Assembly (NCBI GenBank): GCA_016432365.1
Contig: CP066686.1
Coordinates: forward strand, 554,319 to 618,318
Source of the DNA: Candidatus Woesebacteria bacterium
Lineage (GTDB): Bacteria; Patescibacteriota; Microgenomatia; UBA8517
Length of the DNA stretch: 64,000 nt
Direction of reading: 5' to 3'
The notes under the pieces were generated by a model. It was given only the letters and a program-made list of their open reading frames with translations. It did not search any database and was not told the DNA's origin. Position numbers and translations under genes: made by a program. Each line of letters begins with the position of its first letter. The first letter of the stretch is position 1. Shown piece by piece: positions 19,344-51,134 of this stretch.

Positions 19344-20702
19344 ATGGACCTAATGGAAAAAGTTGTGGCTCTTGCCAAAAGGAGGGGTTTTGTTTATCCA
19401 TCCTCAGAATTATATGGCGGAATGGCAAACGTTTATGATTTTGGGCCTGCCGGAACTCTTCTTAAAAATAATATACGAGATCTCTGGCTCAAGAAATTTG
19501 TTTTAGACCGTGACGACATGGTTGTGATTGATGCCGCGACAATTCTCAAACCTGAAATTTGGGAGGCGTCGGGTCATTTAGCTGGATTTAACGAGGCATT
19601 AATTGATTGCAAAGAATGTAAAAATAGGGCACGAGCAGATCATCTGATCGAGAATTTTCTTCCGGATAAAAAAGTTGAAGGTCTTAAGTTTGAGGAGCTG
19701 GAGAAAATTATTGACGAAAATAAAATTCCTTGTCCGAAATGCGGAAAATTCGATTGGACAAAAATTAGGAAATTTAATCAACTAGTAGAAATTAAACTCG
19801 GTGTACTTGAAGAAGGAAAAAACATGGCGTATCTTCGGGGAGAAATAGCCCAGGGAATTTTTATAAACTTCAAAAACGTTTTAGACTCAACTCGTGTAAA
19901 AATTCCATTTGGAATCGCCCAACAGGGAAAGGCTTATAGAAATGAAATAACGATGGGGCAATTTACTCATCGGTCTTTTGAGTTTGACTTAATGGAGTTT
20001 GAATATTTTATTAAATCGGAAGGTTGGGAAAAGGTTTTTGATATGTGGAAAGAAGAGATGTGGAAATTCGCGCTTTCTCTTGGAATAAAAGAGGAAAATC
20101 TAAGATGGCGCGAACACGAGGAATTCGAGCGATCTTTTTATTCCAAAAAGACAATGGATATTGAATATAAATATCCATTTGGGTTTAAAGAAATGTTCGG
20201 AATTGCTTATAGGACTGATTATGATTTAAAAAATCATTCAAAGAATACAGGTAAGGACTTGGATTACCGCGATCCTTATACAAACGAAGTTTATACACCG
20301 CATGTTATTGAACCCACGTTCGGGCTTTCCAGATTAACGGGAATTCTTCTTTTTAATGGGTATAGCGAGGATGGAGAAAGGGTTGTATTAAAGCTTGATC
20401 CCAAAATCGCTCCATATAAGGTGGCAGTATTTCCGCTTCTTGGAAACAAACTAGAATTAACCGAAAAAGCGCGCGAAATTTATAAAAATCTCAAAAAAGA
20501 GTTTAACGTGGTGTGGGACGATCGGGGGAATATCGGTAAGCGTTATTTTGCTCAGGATGAAATTGGAACTCCTTGGTGTGTTACGGTCGATTTTCAGTCC
20601 CTGGACGACGATACAGTAACCGTACGCGACAGGGATACGGCAAATCAGGTAAGAATAGCCATTGACAAGTTATCTGAATATTTTCAAAATGGATTAAGGT
20701 AA
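19344..20702 (+). CDS. glyQS: Glycine--tRNA ligase, alpha2 dimeric (GlyQS) type
   Basis: N-terminus RRGFVYPSSELYGGMANVYDFGPAGTLLKNNI matches the class II GlyRS motifs. Full-length C-terminal anticodon-binding domain. Confidence 0.9.
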   Translation: MDLMEKVVALAKRRGFVYPSSELYGGMANVYDFGPAGTLLKNNIRDLWLKKFVLDRDDMVVIDAATILKPEIWEASGHLAGFNEALIDCKECKNRARADHLIENFLPDKKVEGLKFEELEKIIDENKIPCPKCGKFDWTKIRKFNQLVEIKLGVLEEGKNMAYLRGEIAQGIFINFKNVLDSTRVKIPFGIAQQGKAYRNEITMGQFTHRSFEFDLMEFEYFIKSEGWEKVFDMWKEEMWKFALSLGIKEENLRWREHEEFERSFYSKKTMDIEYKYPFGFKEMFGIAYRTDYDLKNHSKNTGKDLDYRDPYTNEVYTPHVIEPTFGLSRLTGILLFNGYSEDGERVVLKLDPKIAPYKVAVFPLLGNKLELTEKAREIYKNLKKEFNVVWDDRGNIGKRYFAQDEIGTPWCVTVDFQSLDDDTVTVRDRDTANQVRIAIDKLSEYFQNGLR

Positions 20703-20725: not shown

Positions 20726-21394
20726 ATGAATGTCATGAAAAAATATCTTCCATTGATTTTAATAAGTTTTGGAGTATTGATCGTAGCGTTTGTCGGAATT
20801 CTTATAGTCAAGTCTATGAAAGGAAGTACTTCTTCTATTCAAGAGGAAGAAATTATCCCCGAGCTTCCACAGTCACAGTGGCCTTCGGTTTCTCTTACAC
20901 CGACAAATAACCCCAGCGTTAAAGGGTCCGATGGGCATTGGTTGAATTTCAAAGTTCAGAAGATTAATGTTCCCGGCGCCGCCAGTATGGATTACCTCAT
21001 GGTTTATTCTACTAGTGATGGCGGTCAACAGGGCGTCCCGGGAACGGTTAAGTTAACAGGCGGTGACATTGAACGACCGTTGTTGCTTGGTTCCGAATCT
21101 TCTGGAAAGTTTAGATACGATGCAGGTGTGGAAAGAGGAACAATTACGATAACATTTCGTGATGGGAATGGTAAGTCGATGGGTAAACTTTCTACCGACT
21201 TTCATTTACAATCAGATACAACCGAATTGACCTCTATTGATGGAAAGTTCATTTATAAGCTAGATAAAGTAGCTAAAGGAGTGTTTTTTGTAACAATGCC
21301 AACTTTTGTTCAGCCTGATTCCTCAATATATGTTACCTGGTCTGATGGCTATGGTGTTTTTGCTTCAGATGGTAAACCTCATAGTGGTAAGTAA
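20726..21394 (+). CDS. Membrane-anchored extracytoplasmic hypothetical protein
   Basis: N-terminal TM/signal anchor (LPLILISFGVLIVAFVGILIV), then a Ser/Thr/Gly-rich beta-type domain. No family recognised. Confidence 0.45.
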   Translation: MNVMKKYLPLILISFGVLIVAFVGILIVKSMKGSTSSIQEEEIIPELPQSQWPSVSLTPTNNPSVKGSDGHWLNFKVQKINVPGAASMDYLMVYSTSDGGQQGVPGTVKLTGGDIERPLLLGSESSGKFRYDAGVERGTITITFRDGNGKSMGKLSTDFHLQSDTTELTSIDGKFIYKLDKVAKGVFFVTMPTFVQPDSSIYVTWSDGYGVFASDGKPHSGK

Positions 21395-21437
21395 CTTCTA
21401 GACTGTTTGATCCACTTGCGATTATTTTGTTCGGTGA

Positions 21438-21466
21438 AAATTGGGGTTGACATCTTGTGAAAAAAT
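21438..21466 (+). promoter_or_regulatory. Sigma-70-like promoter of the dcw cluster (TTGACA - 16/17 nt - cATAAT)
   Basis: TTGACA at 21438-21443, spacer, CATAAT/ATAATG at 21460-21466. About 90 nt upstream of mraZ. Confidence 0.45.
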
Positions 21467-21490
21467 ATCATAATGGTTGTTAATGGTGAG
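21463..21490 (+). promoter_or_regulatory. Putative MraZ operator: three direct repeats aATGGTtg / aATGGTga / aATGGTga with exact 10-bp phasing
   Basis: ATGG at 21464, 21474, 21484. Starts inside the -10 element. Known MraZ boxes are short G-rich direct repeats with 10-bp periodicity upstream of mraZ. Confidence 0.45.
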
Positions 21491-21554
21491 AAATGGTGAT
21501 TACCAAATCAAGCCAGAATAAATATGAACCTGCCCAGTTCGAAATATTGTCGCT

Positions 21555-21992
21555 ATGCTTCTAGGAACTTATCCAACCAAAATTCTTGCAGGCCGTCGAG
21601 TCGCAGTGCCGTCAGCCTTCCGTTCTCAGCTTGGGGAAACTTACATATTAGCCAGATGGTACGAAGAGTGTTTAGTTTTGGTGAATAAGAGTCTTTTAAG
21701 CGCACTTTTGACAAGAATTACAGGTGGAGATAAATCAATTGTCGAACCAATAAGACTAACGGAACATTTTATATTTGCATCAGCCTATGAGGTTCTACCG
21801 GATGAACAAGGAAGAATTGTAATACCGGAAAGACTAGCAAATTACGCGAAACTAACTGAACAAGTGTACTTTTTGGGCGTGGGGGATAGAGTAGAAATCT
21901 GGAACAAAGAAGTTTGGGACGAAAAAGAGAGTGTTGTAGCCAAGAATGCGGCAGAGTACATCGAACAGCTATCAAAAAAATATGGAAAATAA
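21555..21992 (+). CDS. mraZ: Transcriptional regulator MraZ
   Basis: MLLGTYPTKILAGRRVAVPSAFR and the second repeat EQGRIVIPERLANYA. Tandem DXXXR-type MraZ repeats, 145 aa. Confidence 0.9.
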   Translation: MLLGTYPTKILAGRRVAVPSAFRSQLGETYILARWYEECLVLVNKSLLSALLTRITGGDKSIVEPIRLTEHFIFASAYEVLPDEQGRIVIPERLANYAKLTEQVYFLGVGDRVEIWNKEVWDEKESVVAKNAAEYIEQLSKKYGK

Positions 21993-22872
21993 TACCAAGA
22001 ATAAATATCACGAGTCGGTAATGGTAGATGAAGCCATAAAGGGCTTGCACATTGAAAAAGGCTTGAAGTACATAGATTGTACGGCCGGTAATGGCGGACA
22101 CATGGAGGCAATCTTAAAAATGGGTGGACAGGTTTTGGGAATTGATTTAGATCCGGCAATGCTTGCGGTTACACAAAAGCGTTTAGAAATTTTCCGGGAT
22201 TTTAAACTCGTTCAAGGTAATTTTGTGAATATAGATAGGATTGCAAGAAATAACAACTGGTCCCCGGTAAACGGAATCCTCCTTGACTTGGGTGTAAGCA
22301 ATATCCATTTGAAGGACCTTGAAAGGGGATTTTCGTTCGAAAACCCCGAAGCGATACTTGATATGCGTCTTGATCCAAATACTCAGGATATTAAGGGTTC
22401 TGATTTATTAAATATCTTGCGTGAGGATCAACTTGAAGATTTATTTTCAGTAAGCCTTGATCCCGGCGCCGCGAAGTGGATTACGGGTAGGGTTTTGCAT
22501 TCAAGAATGGCTAAACCCGTCGAGACGGTCGGAGACATGCTCGAAATTTGTGAAGGGCTTCGTACGGGAAAGCCCGGAATGAGCATTGCGACTCTTCCGT
22601 TTTTAGCATTAAGAATTGCGGTAAATAGCGAATTAACGAATTTAAAAGAGGTCTTGCCGGTTGCCTTTGACCTTTTGGAGAGCGACGGGCGTTTAGTGGT
22701 TATTAGTTTTCACTCAGGGGAAGACAAGATAGTAAAAGAATTTATTAAGGGGAAAGGGCAAACAGGAGAAGGTAAAATGATTACTTTTGCGCCAATAAGA
22801 GCGGGAGAAACCGAAATTGATTTAAACAGACGCGCGAGAAGCGCAAAGATGAGAATTATTCAAAAAATATGA
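21946..22872 (+). CDS. rsmH: 16S rRNA (cytosine1402-N4)-methyltransferase RsmH
   Basis: HESVMVDEAI...YIDCTAGNGGH, the RsmH SAM-binding signature. Confidence 0.9.
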   Translation: MRQSTSNSYQKNMENNTKNKYHESVMVDEAIKGLHIEKGLKYIDCTAGNGGHMEAILKMGGQVLGIDLDPAMLAVTQKRLEIFRDFKLVQGNFVNIDRIARNNNWSPVNGILLDLGVSNIHLKDLERGFSFENPEAILDMRLDPNTQDIKGSDLLNILREDQLEDLFSVSLDPGAAKWITGRVLHSRMAKPVETVGDMLEICEGLRTGKPGMSIATLPFLALRIAVNSELTNLKEVLPVAFDLLESDGRLVVISFHSGEDKIVKEFIKGKGQTGEGKMITFAPIRAGETEIDLNRRARSAKMRIIQKI

Positions 22873-23183
22873 TCAAAAAAATACAGGTAAAAAATACAAA
22901 CAAGAAAGGAAATTTAAAGAATTATATTCTTATTTCAATATGCGGAGTGCTCGCCATCCTCTCGGTTGCAATGACCGTAGAAACCGCAACCAGTGGTTTG
23001 GAAATCGCTTCATTTGAAAAAACTGAGGGAAGTTTAATCGACACGAGACGGGATCTCGAGGAAACCTTGGTAAAAACTCTATCGAGCCGTGAACTTCAAC
23101 AAAAAAGTGAAGAGTTGGGTTTTACAAACCCCGAAAACTTAGTTTATATTACTCAAATTTTGCCTGTTGCCAAACTTCCTTGA
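22869..23183 (+). CDS. ftsL: FtsL-like small bitopic division protein
   Basis: 104 aa, a single TM followed by a coiled-coil-like segment, in the canonical position between rsmH and ftsI. Confidence 0.5.
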   Translation: MIKKIQVKNTNKKGNLKNYILISICGVLAILSVAMTVETATSGLEIASFEKTEGSLIDTRRDLEETLVKTLSSRELQQKSEELGFTNPENLVYITQILPVAKLP

Positions 23184-23202: not shown

Positions 23203-24906
23203 ATGCGTGACAGGAAAAAAAACAAACCCGAGTGGAGACTTATAATTTTCTCTGTAATTTATTTGCTTCTTTTTACAGGATTAATTCTCAGACTTATTTA
23301 TTGGCAAGTTATAAGGGGAACGGATCTATCCGAGGGGGCTAAGGGTCAATATAAATCTTCTCGTATTACTGTTGCACCAAGGGGAAATATTTTGGCCAGC
23401 GATGGTAGTTTTTGGGCACTACGAACCGACGCCTGGTTTGTTTATGCGAACACCAACGAGCTTACTGCAAACGTTTCTGACGTGTCAAACAAACTTGCAG
23501 TTCTTCTAGATGATGATGAGTCACGTTTGTTTAGTCTTTTGAGTAAAAAAAGTGCCTACGTACCTCTAAAACAGAAAATCGATAATGAGACTAAAAAAAA
23601 TATCGAAGCCCTAGGAATAAAGGGAATTGGCTTTGAAACACGGGAGGCGAGGTATTACCCGGAGGCTTCAACTGCGGCACAACTTTTGGGGTTTGTAGGC
23701 AAGGACGAAACCGGTGCCGATATTGGTTATTTTGGTCTGGAGGGCTACTACAACCTGCCTTTAAGCGGTAAACCGGGTTTTTTGGGAAGGGAAAAGGATG
23801 CTCACGGGTCACCCATTCTGATAGAGCCCGGTAAAAGCGTTTCAGCAATTAATGGAATTGATTTATTGACAAGTATCGACAAAAGAATACAAATTTTAGC
23901 AGAGGCAAAACTAAAAGAGGGTATAGAAAAATATGGGGCGTTAGGTGGCTCGATCACAATTGAGGACCCGAAAACGGGTGAAATATTGGCAATGGCAAGT
24001 TATCCATCATACGATCCAAGTAACTACAGTGAATACGGAAACTCCTTTTTTAAAAACCCGGTTATTTCCGATACATTTGAACCTGGATCAATTATGAAGG
24101 TGATTGTTATGGCAGCAGGACTAGATGCCGGACTGGTTAAACCGGATACAGAATGTGATATTTGCTCGGAGCCACTGAAGCTTGACAAGTACTTTATAAA
24201 AACTTGGAACAATAAGTACCACCCCAACATTTCGATGACGGACGTTATAGTTGACTCCGACAATGTCGGAATGGTTTTTGTGGGACAAAAATTGGGTGCT
24301 GATGGTTTGTACAGTTATTTTGACAATTTTGGTGTGGGCCAACTTACCGGAATAGATTTACAAGGCGAAAGTGCGCCACCCCTTAGAAAAAAGGGGACTT
24401 GGAATATGGTGGATTTGGCAACTGCCAGTTTCGGACAGGGAGTCGCTGTGACCGGCATTCAAATGGTTAGGGCTGTTTCTGCAATTGCTAATGGGGGATA
24501 TATGTTAATACCGAAAGTTGTAACCGGCTTAAAGGGCGATGGATGGGAAGAAAAAATTAAAGTAGAATCGCCCAAAAAAGTGATAAGTTCAGAAGCGGCT
24601 ACGCAGATCACACAAATGATGATCGAAGCGGCGGATAAAGGAGAGGCAAAGTGGGCAAAGGTTCCTGGTTTTAAGGTAGCAGGCAAAACCGGGACAGCTC
24701 AGATTCCGGTTGAAGGCCATTATGATTCTACAAATACGAACCATTCATTTATTGGTTTTGCCCCGGCAGATAAACCAAAATTTGTAATGCTTGTAACCTT
24801 AAAGTCTCCTCAGAGTTCGCCGTGGGCTGCTGAAACTGCAGCCCCACTTTGGTACACAGTTGCAAAAGAACTCTTTCTATATTTGGGGATTGAGCCCAGT
24901 CAGTAG
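23203..24906 (+). CDS. ftsI: Class B penicillin-binding protein (FtsI/PBP2 transpeptidase)
   Basis: N-terminal TM and PBP dimerisation domain. Transpeptidase motifs SxxK-like (ASYPSYD context), SDN (VDSDNVG), KTG (AGKTGTAQ). Confidence 0.85.
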   Translation: MRDRKKNKPEWRLIIFSVIYLLLFTGLILRLIYWQVIRGTDLSEGAKGQYKSSRITVAPRGNILASDGSFWALRTDAWFVYANTNELTANVSDVSNKLAVLLDDDESRLFSLLSKKSAYVPLKQKIDNETKKNIEALGIKGIGFETREARYYPEASTAAQLLGFVGKDETGADIGYFGLEGYYNLPLSGKPGFLGREKDAHGSPILIEPGKSVSAINGIDLLTSIDKRIQILAEAKLKEGIEKYGALGGSITIEDPKTGEILAMASYPSYDPSNYSEYGNSFFKNPVISDTFEPGSIMKVIVMAAGLDAGLVKPDTECDICSEPLKLDKYFIKTWNNKYHPNISMTDVIVDSDNVGMVFVGQKLGADGLYSYFDNFGVGQLTGIDLQGESAPPLRKKGTWNMVDLATASFGQGVAVTGIQMVRAVSAIANGGYMLIPKVVTGLKGDGWEEKIKVESPKKVISSEAATQITQMMIEAADKGEAKWAKVPGFKVAGKTGTAQIPVEGHYDSTNTNHSFIGFAPADKPKFVMLVTLKSPQSSPWAAETAAPLWYTVAKELFLYLGIEPSQ

Positions 24907-24920
24907 TATACTTATCTCTG

Positions 24921-26171
24921 ATGTCAAAATTAATTGTTACTGGCGGCAGAAAACTTGAAGGTAATATTAGCCTTTCAGGTAATAAGAACTCGGTTTTGAA
25001 GCTAATCCCAGCAGTTCTTCTTGCAGATTCCCCCTCTACTCTAACAAATGTACCTGATATATTGGATGTTTCTGTTGTGCTTCAGCTTATTGAGACTTTG
25101 GGAGCAAAAGTTACAAGGGACGGCCATTCGGTTACGATAGACCCTTCGGGATTACACTCTTTCGACTTGGATCCGGATCTTTCTGCAAAATTTAGAGCTT
25201 CGGTTGTCCTTGCTGCACCTCTTTTAGTCAAATTCGGCAAAGCGATCGTTACACCTCCTGGGGGAGACCAAATAGGAGACAGATTCTTGGATACCCATTT
25301 TTCTATGATGCAAAAGATGGGGGTTGAAATGAGGCGTGAAGATGGAAGGTTTTTCCTCACCTGGAACAAGAAAAAAACTGGTACCCTCTTCTTAGAAGAA
25401 GCTTCTGTGACTGCCACCGAAATGGCTCTAATGATGGCCACTTCTTCTCCGGACATCACAGTAGTTGAAAACGCTGCCACAGAACCTCACGTTACAGACT
25501 TAGGTAAACTGTTAATTAAAATGGGGGCAAAAATAACAGGTTTGGGTCTTAGTACCCTATCTATTTCCGGTGGAAAATTAAAAGGCGTTGAATACAGAGT
25601 TATGCCCGATCATATTGAAGGCGGTACGTTTGTGATAGCCTCGGCAATTACCGGCGGGCATATAAAAATAGATGATTTCATCCCCGAAGATCACAGGATG
25701 GCTCTAATCAATCTTGCAAACATGGGTGTTAAATTTGAGCTGTCAAAAAACAGTATCGAGGTTTTTCCGTCAAAATTGGTTGCTACTAGAAAGAAATTTA
25801 AAGCCCAACCTTGGCCGGGTTTTCCGACGGATCTCATGAGTCCTTTTATCGTTCTTGCCACACAAACCCAGGGAACGGTTCTCTGCCACGATTGGATGTA
25901 TGAATGGAGAATGTTTTTTGTAGACGATCTAATTTCAATGGGAGCAAATATTTTCATTGCTGACCCCCATAGAGTCATTGTTAGCGGCCCTACGCCTTTG
26001 ATGAGCGACAGACTTTTTTGTAAAGATATTAGGGCGGGGATTTCGGTAATATTAGCAGCCCTTATTGCGGACGGTAGGAGTGAAATAGAAAATATTGAAG
26101 TAGTTCAAAGAGGGTATGAAAGAATAGATGAAAGGTTAAGAAGTTTGGGAGCAGAGATAGTTACGAAATAA
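24921..26171 (+). CDS. murA: UDP-N-acetylglucosamine 1-carboxyvinyltransferase
   Basis: LIVTGGRKLEGNISLSGNKNSVLKL..PAVLLAD is the MurA N-terminus. About 416 aa. Confidence 0.9.
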   Translation: MSKLIVTGGRKLEGNISLSGNKNSVLKLIPAVLLADSPSTLTNVPDILDVSVVLQLIETLGAKVTRDGHSVTIDPSGLHSFDLDPDLSAKFRASVVLAAPLLVKFGKAIVTPPGGDQIGDRFLDTHFSMMQKMGVEMRREDGRFFLTWNKKKTGTLFLEEASVTATEMALMMATSSPDITVVENAATEPHVTDLGKLLIKMGAKITGLGLSTLSISGGKLKGVEYRVMPDHIEGGTFVIASAITGGHIKIDDFIPEDHRMALINLANMGVKFELSKNSIEVFPSKLVATRKKFKAQPWPGFPTDLMSPFIVLATQTQGTVLCHDWMYEWRMFFVDDLISMGANIFIADPHRVIVSGPTPLMSDRLFCKDIRAGISVILAALIADGRSEIENIEVVQRGYERIDERLRSLGAEIVTK

Positions 26172-51105: not shown

Positions 51106-51134
51106 TTGACAACTGTGAAAACATACTTTATATT
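51106..51134 (+). promoter_or_regulatory. Sigma-70-like promoter for rpmA (TTGACA-17-TATATT)
   Basis: TTGACA at 51106-51111, TATATT at 51129-51134. GGA SD before the ATG at 51144. Confidence 0.4.

Follow-up and report, generated by a model that had tools for sequence, protein, structure and literature searches.

Three phased AATGGT boxes at the mraZ promoter of Candidatus Woesebacteria: a probable autoregulatory operator of the dcw-cluster repressor MraZ

The window, that is, the whole 64-kb stretch of Candidatus Woesebacteria DNA analyzed here, contains the beginning of a dcw cluster with the gene order mraZ-rsmH-ftsL-PBP-murA, preceded by glyS and then by an unannotated gene for a 222-aa protein. 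The genes of the cluster are:

21555..21992, + strand: mraZ, 145 aa, presumed box-binding repressor and first gene of the dcw cluster, assigned from Pfam, TIGR00242 and PDB matches
21946-22872: rsmH, following mraZ
22869-23183: ftsL-like gene, following rsmH
23203-24906: class-B PBP gene, following the ftsL-like gene
24921-26171: murA, following the class-B PBP gene

The MraZ protein of the window matches the Pfam MraZ family (PF02381) with E=2e-17, above the gathering score, and TIGR00242 with E=8e-21 and 74.5 bits, the curated cut-off of the latter being 98.35; MraZ chains from the PDB align to its residues 1-123 with E=1e-12 to 1e-10. The closest homologues are found in Candidatus Woesebacteria and in other Patescibacteria/Microgenomates. 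As for the 222-aa gene (20726-21394, + strand), the encoded protein has a hydrophobic N-terminal segment and gave no Pfam or NCBIfam match, and a promoter-like TTGACA-17-CAAAAT for it lies at 20662, within the end of glyS. The gene occupies the same place between glyS and mraZ in four related loci (L060-L063), with products of 222-251 aa in those four.

The region between this gene and mraZ holds the following elements:

21434..21440, + strand: upstream GTGAAAA element, 13 nt before the -35 hexamer, a conserved promoter companion
21447..21452, + strand: -35 hexamer TTGACA of the dcw (mraZ) promoter, from a consensus scan
21457..21463, + strand: spacer GTGAAAA element, 4 nt after TTGACA and inside the -35/-10 spacer, likewise a conserved companion
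21469..21474, + strand: -10 hexamer CATAAT, from a consensus scan, separated from the -35 by 16 nt
21472..21477, + strand: MraZ box 1 (putative), AATGGT, core ATGG at 21473-21476, at about -10 to -7 relative to the predicted start site
21482..21487, + strand: MraZ box 2 (putative), AATGGT, core ATGG at 21483-21486, at about +1 to +4 relative to the predicted start site
21492..21497, + strand: MraZ box 3 (putative), AATGGT, core ATGG at 21493-21496, at about +11 to +14 relative to the predicted start site

Read directly from the window, positions 21472-21499 are aATGGTTGttaATGGTGAgaaATGGTGA, and box 1 lies 82 nt from the mraZ ATG. A preliminary description of this DNA had reported three ATGG copies in phase; the repeat and its exact 10-bp spacing were borne out, but the coordinates were not, the starts given there (21464, 21474 and 21484) being each 9 nt lower than the true ones (21473, 21483 and 21493) and the region ending at 21490, which leaves box 3 (21493-21497) outside. 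The same description had correctly placed a TTGACA-16-CATAAT promoter upstream of mraZ. In the consensus scan, this promoter agrees with the consensus at 11 of 12 positions and is the lone strong promoter of the region. It was also right in having box 1 start within the -10 hexamer, the last AT of CATAAT being the first AT of box 1. Predicted from the position of the -10 hexamer, transcription would start at approximately 21480-21483, that is, near box 2, because the distances from the -10 to the ATG at the apparently leaderless genes of this genome are 6-11 nt. The array hence overlaps the promoter itself, through the AT shared by box 1 and the -10 hexamer, as well as the predicted start site.

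The phased arrangement is rare. Within the 64-kb window, ATGGT-N5-ATGGT-N5-ATGGT occurs once, at 21473-21497, and none of 100 dinucleotide-preserving shuffles reached a match, even with one mismatch included. The looser pattern RTGG-N6-RTGG-N6-RTGG is also found a single time in the window (shuffle mean 0.01), and a two-box AATGGT-N4-AATGGT search allowing one mismatch returned the mraZ promoter site as its sole match. The search for the repeat elsewhere that the preliminary description had proposed was thus carried out across the 64-kb window, where the triple proved unique to the mraZ promoter.

To place the array in an evolutionary context, we compared the mraZ upstream regions of relatives. 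The protein-retrieved set comprised 23 loci with 22 distinct sequences, in which MraZ is ~49-70% identical to that of the window. The first protein-based scan, of species-representative genomes, yielded 18 loci with MraZ 54-70% identical, and all 18 display ATGG-N6-ATGG-N6-(A/G)TGG directly 3' of the -10 hexamer. With the most divergent MraZ (49% identical) as the query, four more loci were recovered from a second Woesebacteria clade, all of which have the same promoter as the window and carry the following box cores:

L060: box 1 ATGG, box 2 ATGG, box 3 GTGG
L061: box 1 ATGG, box 2 ATGG, box 3 ATGG
L062: box 1 ATGG, box 2 GTGG, box 3 ATGG
L063: box 1 ATGG, box 2 GTAG, box 3 ATGG

RTGG-N6-RTGG-N6-RTGG follows the -10 hexamer in all 23 loci except L063, the middle box of which is degenerate (GTAG). 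The 10-bp period is kept in 22 of the 22 distinct relatives, and their cores are distributed as follows:

Box 1: ATGG in 22, GTGG in 0, GTAG in 0
Box 2: ATGG in 20, GTGG in 1, GTAG in 1
Box 3: ATGG in 20, GTGG in 2, GTAG in 0

Pooling the 66 boxes of the 22 relatives gives the consensus w-A-[A62/G4]-T66-G65-G66-T59. Compared with the canonical GTG(G/T)/GTGG/TGGG, three of the four core positions match (T in 66, G in 65 and G in 66 of 66 boxes), whereas at position 1 just four boxes have the canonical G and the other 62 have A, the canonical boxes being those of L007, L060 and L062. The preliminary description had spoken of an A/T-shifted box, which holds in the narrow sense that A stands for G at position 1, the remainder of the core being canonical. 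Columns of the box cores average 1.90 bits, compared with 0.23 for those upstream of the -35 hexamer and 0.47 for those after box 3; in other words, the alignment of relatives that had been suggested as a check shows the phased triple retained while the surrounding intergenic DNA diverged. The spacer between boxes 2 and 3 (TGAGAA) is strongly conserved as well, at 1.33 bits per spacer column, much more than known operators would require, and part of the conservation of boxes 2 and 3 may have a second cause, since in most relatives these two boxes form the 5' arm of a leader hairpin.

The promoter was retained along with the boxes. TTGACA is present in 22 of the 22 distinct protein-retrieved relatives and is replaced by TTGACT in two metagenome loci retrieved by DNA (L022 and L041), and a -10 hexamer of the NAxAAT type lies 16-17 nt past the -35 in the relatives, always terminating in the AT of box 1. 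Scanning metagenomes for the DNA pattern ATGG-N4-TAATGGTGAGAAATGG, with no reference to protein, returned 40 loci, in all of which a mraZ homologue (40-70% identity over the available sequence) starts 56-94 nt downstream; none of the 40 matches stands in front of any other gene. The phase of the repeat is kept across more than 60 loci with diverged flanks, and the boxes are invariant in lineages with quite different leaders. Overall, the boxes are present, non-random, strictly conserved in phase and position, and exclusively linked to mraZ. Several metagenome-assembled genomes with a Woesebacteria-type mraZ (L001, L003, L005, L006, L008, L011, L014 and L017) are titled Gammaproteobacteria, Alphaproteobacteria or Woesearchaeota archaeon; these titles probably represent mislabeled taxonomy in the public records.

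Proteins of the MraZ family have two MraZ/AbrB-like half-domains in tandem, each carrying a DXXXR motif. In Mycoplasma genitalium, the residues Lys13, Arg15 and Arg86 of MraZ contact the T-G-(T/G) core of the box, and transcription starts within box 1 (PMC12957436). Judging by the alignment, the cognate protein in Woesebacteria is an MraZ that retains the two base-contacting arginines: Arg15 and Arg87, the latter equivalent to Arg86 of M. genitalium, are invariant across the MraZ proteins of the clade, Arg87 being conserved within the second motif, D83-E-Q-G-R87. The first DNA-binding motif of the window protein is atypical (L11-A-G13-R14-R15), with Leu11 in place of Asp and Gly13-Arg14 in place of the usual Lys13-Gly/Asn14. 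Members of the clade almost invariably have Gly where M. genitalium has Lys13, followed by K, R, H or N at position 14. In the structure from M. genitalium, residue 13, the one that differs, reaches box positions 1-2, which suggests that Gly13 and a neighboring basic residue 14 may have evolved together with the G>A replacement at box position 1.

We conclude that the three AATGGT boxes are, with a probability of roughly 85%, the autoregulatory operator of the dcw-cluster repressor MraZ in Candidatus Woesebacteria. The proposal of the preliminary description that this is a candidate MraZ autoregulatory site is thereby supported in silico by conservation, uniqueness and an architecture like that of known operators; that MraZ is the protein that binds the boxes, and the sign of the regulation, we infer. 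Several observations stand as caveats to the operator reading: position 1 of the box is A where the canonical base is G; the first DNA-binding motif of MraZ is atypical, with a TIGR00242 score below the cut-off; the spacer between boxes 2 and 3 is unusually conserved; and conserved GTGAA elements flank the -35 hexamer.

An alternative cause of conservation would be the leader RNA. In P1, a 5'-terminal leader hairpin, boxes 2 and 3 (AAUGGUGAGAAAUGGU) pair with a downstream ACCAUyUCUnACCAC; P1 lies at L012:1946-1979 and at the same position in 19 other leaders of the 64-nt type, and weakly at 21485-21505 of the window, the own leader of which has no significant structure and lacks P1 proper (fold z = -0.66). 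The boxes might accordingly be nothing other than the 5' arm of a hairpin that stabilizes the dcw mRNA or controls its translation, with the 10-bp period incidental. In favor of this reading, among the 20 distinct leaders of the 64-nt type, 91% of the cells of P1 are paired and three pairs are changed on both sides, with about 20 UA>UG and GC>GU changes, and the L012 leader folds at -19.7 kcal/mol (z = -4.46). Nevertheless, box 1, which lies in the -10 hexamer and outside the hairpin, is the most invariant of the three (22/22), the boxes are kept without P1 in the window leader and in the leaders of the L011/L018 and L016/L017 types, and three copies at equal spacing are not what a hairpin would lead one to expect. 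Furthermore, the variation in P1 is all on the 3' arm, with the box cores of the 5' arm (ATGG, columns 4-6 and 13-16) unchanged, indicating that the boxes are under an additional constraint that is sequence-specific. An explanation through RNA alone is therefore very unlikely, and P1 is an added layer rather than a replacement for the operator. We also considered the 3' arm of P1 as a set of inverted MraZ sites on the bottom strand and rejected this, because the changes seen in this arm (to CTGT, CTAT and CCGT) are compatible with wobble pairing in the RNA yet abolish RTGG on the opposite strand.

[quoted passage not shown] Of 46 related leaders, 41 enclose the loop in a stem of at least 4 bp, compared with 24% when the flanks are shuffled, and at least seven different covarying stems occur, with sequences such as CAUCU/AGAUG, UGAAC/GUUCG (that of the window, at 21525-21541, UGAAC cugccca GUUCG), AUGAAA/UUUCAU, GAGCC/GGCUC and UACC/GGUA. 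A general translation signal was rejected as the role of the loop, given that the loop word CTGCCCR shows no enrichment in the window (9 occurrences against 7.2 expected). Scanning 21380-21620 against Rfam at E<=10 returned a noise hit alone (snoR18, E=7.5) and no known RNA family. In L014, an insertion of ~100 nt (approximately L014:1861-1960) separates box 3 from P2 and extends the distance from box 1 to the ATG to 164 nt; the resulting leader, 165 nt long, is predicted to fold at -44.8 kcal/mol, with the insertion contributing GC-rich pairs, and retains the boxes and the P2 loop. A broader possibility is that the Woesebacteria mraZ leader is a two-layer control region in which boxes 2 and 3 double as an arm of P1, with P1 and P2 constituting a previously undescribed cis-regulatory RNA of the dcw cluster, although we consider this rather improbable. 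Speculatively, the trans factor reading P1 and P2 could be RsmH, encoded by the next gene, the 16S rRNA target of which around C1402 (...CCGCCCG...) we take to resemble the P2 loop context CC-U-GCCCG.

The boxes could also be the operator of a DNA-binding protein other than MraZ, for example, another regulator of the AbrB/SpoVT type, for which a bipartite TGGNA motif similar to the boxes has been reported. The association documented above is, after all, with the promoter and not directly with the protein, and the GTGAA elements around the -35 hexamer indicate that other factors probably act at this promoter. All 22 relatives have a spacer copy of GTGAA at +10 or +11, counted from where the -35 starts, and 21 of them also have upstream GTGAA, in one or two copies, at around -12/-13 and/or -21 of TTGACA; the upstream copies at -12/-13 and -21 form a tandem with a period of 9 nt, and the nearest of them lies 21-24 or 32 nt from the spacer copy. 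TTGACA-N3-GTGAAAA recurs at the promoter of rpmA (L27), at 51106-51121, and TTGACA-N3-6-GTGAA is confined to mraZ and rpmA within the 64-kb window, in which GTGAAAA as such is not enriched (19 observed, 21.8 expected). A paper on the Mollicutes regulon offered no lead on GTGAA. These elements may be the site of a second regulator or a sub-element of the promoter, and, from their conservation, a factor in addition to MraZ probably acts here. That such a factor, in place of MraZ, reads the three boxes is very unlikely nonetheless: every locus retrieved by DNA (40 of 40) or through the protein (23 of 23) has the motif together with mraZ, no alternative candidate regulator gene adjoins the locus, and the period, copy number, core and position fit proven MraZ operators (PMC12957436).

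A further explanation starts from the ATG within each box. An SD sequence precedes only 7 of 46 gene starts in the window, and a TATAAT-like hexamer is located 6-11 nt upstream of the ATG in 13 of 53 window ORFs, compared with 3.5% at random positions; examples of such starts are at 324, 9479, 12764, 15559, 16386, 19344 and 29919. This pattern suggests that leaderless mRNAs are widespread in this Woesebacteria genome, and against this background of few SD sequences and apparently many leaderless genes the long, structured mraZ leader stands out. With its ATG 8 nt past the -10 hexamer, as at the leaderless genes of the genome, box 2 might then start a leaderless mini-ORF (MVRNG...) that regulates mraZ translation, and MV(R/K)(N/S)G is indeed encoded from box 2 in 39 of 41 leaders. 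Two lineages, however, stop after MV, and no peptide is conserved past the box DNA. The third codon positions of ATG GTG AGA AAT GG are invariant, which indicates a constraint at the nucleotide level rather than on coding, and boxes 1 and 3 and the 10-bp period are left unexplained. We therefore give this explanation hardly any credence. Upstream ORFs from all three box ATGs were likewise rejected as the cause of conservation, their lengths ranging from 2 to 47 aa with shifting frames and stops. Finally, a functionless chance or low-complexity repeat, which has only the short length of the core in its favor, is refuted by the conservation of phase across more than 60 loci and by the absence of a match in any of the 100 shuffles.

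Returning to the operator reading, an MraZ oligomer would bind along one face of the helix, its subunits entering three successive major grooves, one at each box, and would thereby cover approximately -10 to +15 of the TTGACA-16-CATAAT promoter. By analogy with characterized systems, MraZ bound in this way would block RNA polymerase from binding or opening the promoter, and exclusion of the polymerase would, by homology, result in negative autoregulation of the dcw operon: when MraZ is abundant, expression of mraZ, rsmH, ftsL, the PBP gene and the downstream genes would be held down in a negative feedback loop.

To our knowledge, no regulator-operator pair has been tested in the Candidate Phyla Radiation (CPR), and our literature search for MraZ in CPR/Patescibacteria found no relevant work. 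The operator proposed here would extend to this radiation the logic of a promoter combined with three phased boxes, which is proven in Proteobacteria, Firmicutes and Mollicutes, and supplies a testable consensus, wA-RTGG-T with a 10-bp period at about -10 to +15. It also presents a natural G>A variant at the very box position that, in the M. genitalium structure, is contacted by the one DNA-reading residue that differs in the clade. The practical value is modest, comprising improved annotation of dcw promoters in CPR genomes and a defined probe for studies of MraZ specificity.

A dcw 5' leader with conserved RNA structure has a precedent in the actinobacterial mraW motif, a structured RNA motif of dcw leaders included in Rfam. 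The likeness concerns P1 and P2 and not the operator, and, unlike the Rfam dcw leader motifs, the leader of the window matches no Rfam family.

For the operator itself, the comparison is with characterized MraZ sites. The MraZ box consists of GTG(G/T) followed by six spacer nucleotides, most bacteria having three boxes and some mycoplasmas four (PMC12957436). The MraZ operator of the Escherichia coli Pmra promoter comprises three direct repeats, GTGGG/TGGGN (Eraso et al. 2014, cited in PMC8475190 and PMC5138195). In E. coli K-12 (NC_000913.3; L019), TTGACA at 154-159 is followed by aGTGGGaaattGTGGGgcaaaGTGGG and then by the mraZ ATG at 235, the GTGGG boxes starting at 191, 201 and 211 with a 10-bp period. 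The window and E. coli thus have in common a TTGACA-type promoter, three xTGGx boxes with a TGG core at a 10-bp period and, downstream, the order mraZ-rsmH-ftsL-ftsI, and the E. coli region is autoregulatory. The box is ATGGT in the window and GTGGG in E. coli, and the array starts 26-27 nt from the start of the -35 in the former and 37 nt in the latter; it lies, therefore, one helical turn closer to the -35 in the window, so that box 1 overlaps the -10 hexamer. The distance from box 1 to the mraZ ATG is 82 nt in the window, compared with 44 nt in E. coli.

In Mollicutes, the MraZ boxes are AAAGTG[T/G] repeats (PMC8475190), and the four-box operator of M. genitalium has been resolved by cryo-EM (PMC12957436). 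The window array shares with these the 10-bp period, an A-rich 5' flank (wA-ATGG in the window) and a start site, here predicted, within or adjoining the boxes, and the MraZ of the window shares with that of M. genitalium the residues equivalent to Arg15 and Arg86. It differs from the M. genitalium system in having three boxes instead of four, a core of ATGG instead of GTG(G/T) and, in the protein, Gly at the position equivalent to Lys13, with the basic residue shifted to position 14. A further likeness in box sequence is to Bacillus subtilis, in which three copies of GTGG[A/T]G with 4-nt spacers are needed for repression and form the sole such triple in the genome (bioRxiv 10.1101/2022.02.09.479790). 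Both arrays comprise three 6-nt boxes with 4-nt spacers that overlap the promoter, and the window array is likewise the sole triple, within the 64-kb window rather than a whole genome. Whereas the B. subtilis repeats are experimentally proven, the boxes of the window are putative, and position 1 is A in 62 of the 66 boxes of the relatives; copies 2 and 3 (ATGGTG) are a single base, that at position 1, apart from the B. subtilis GTGGTG. Set beside these systems, the proposed Woesebacteria operator is an expected, ordinary case of a well-known bacterial switch, with a box that varies at one position.
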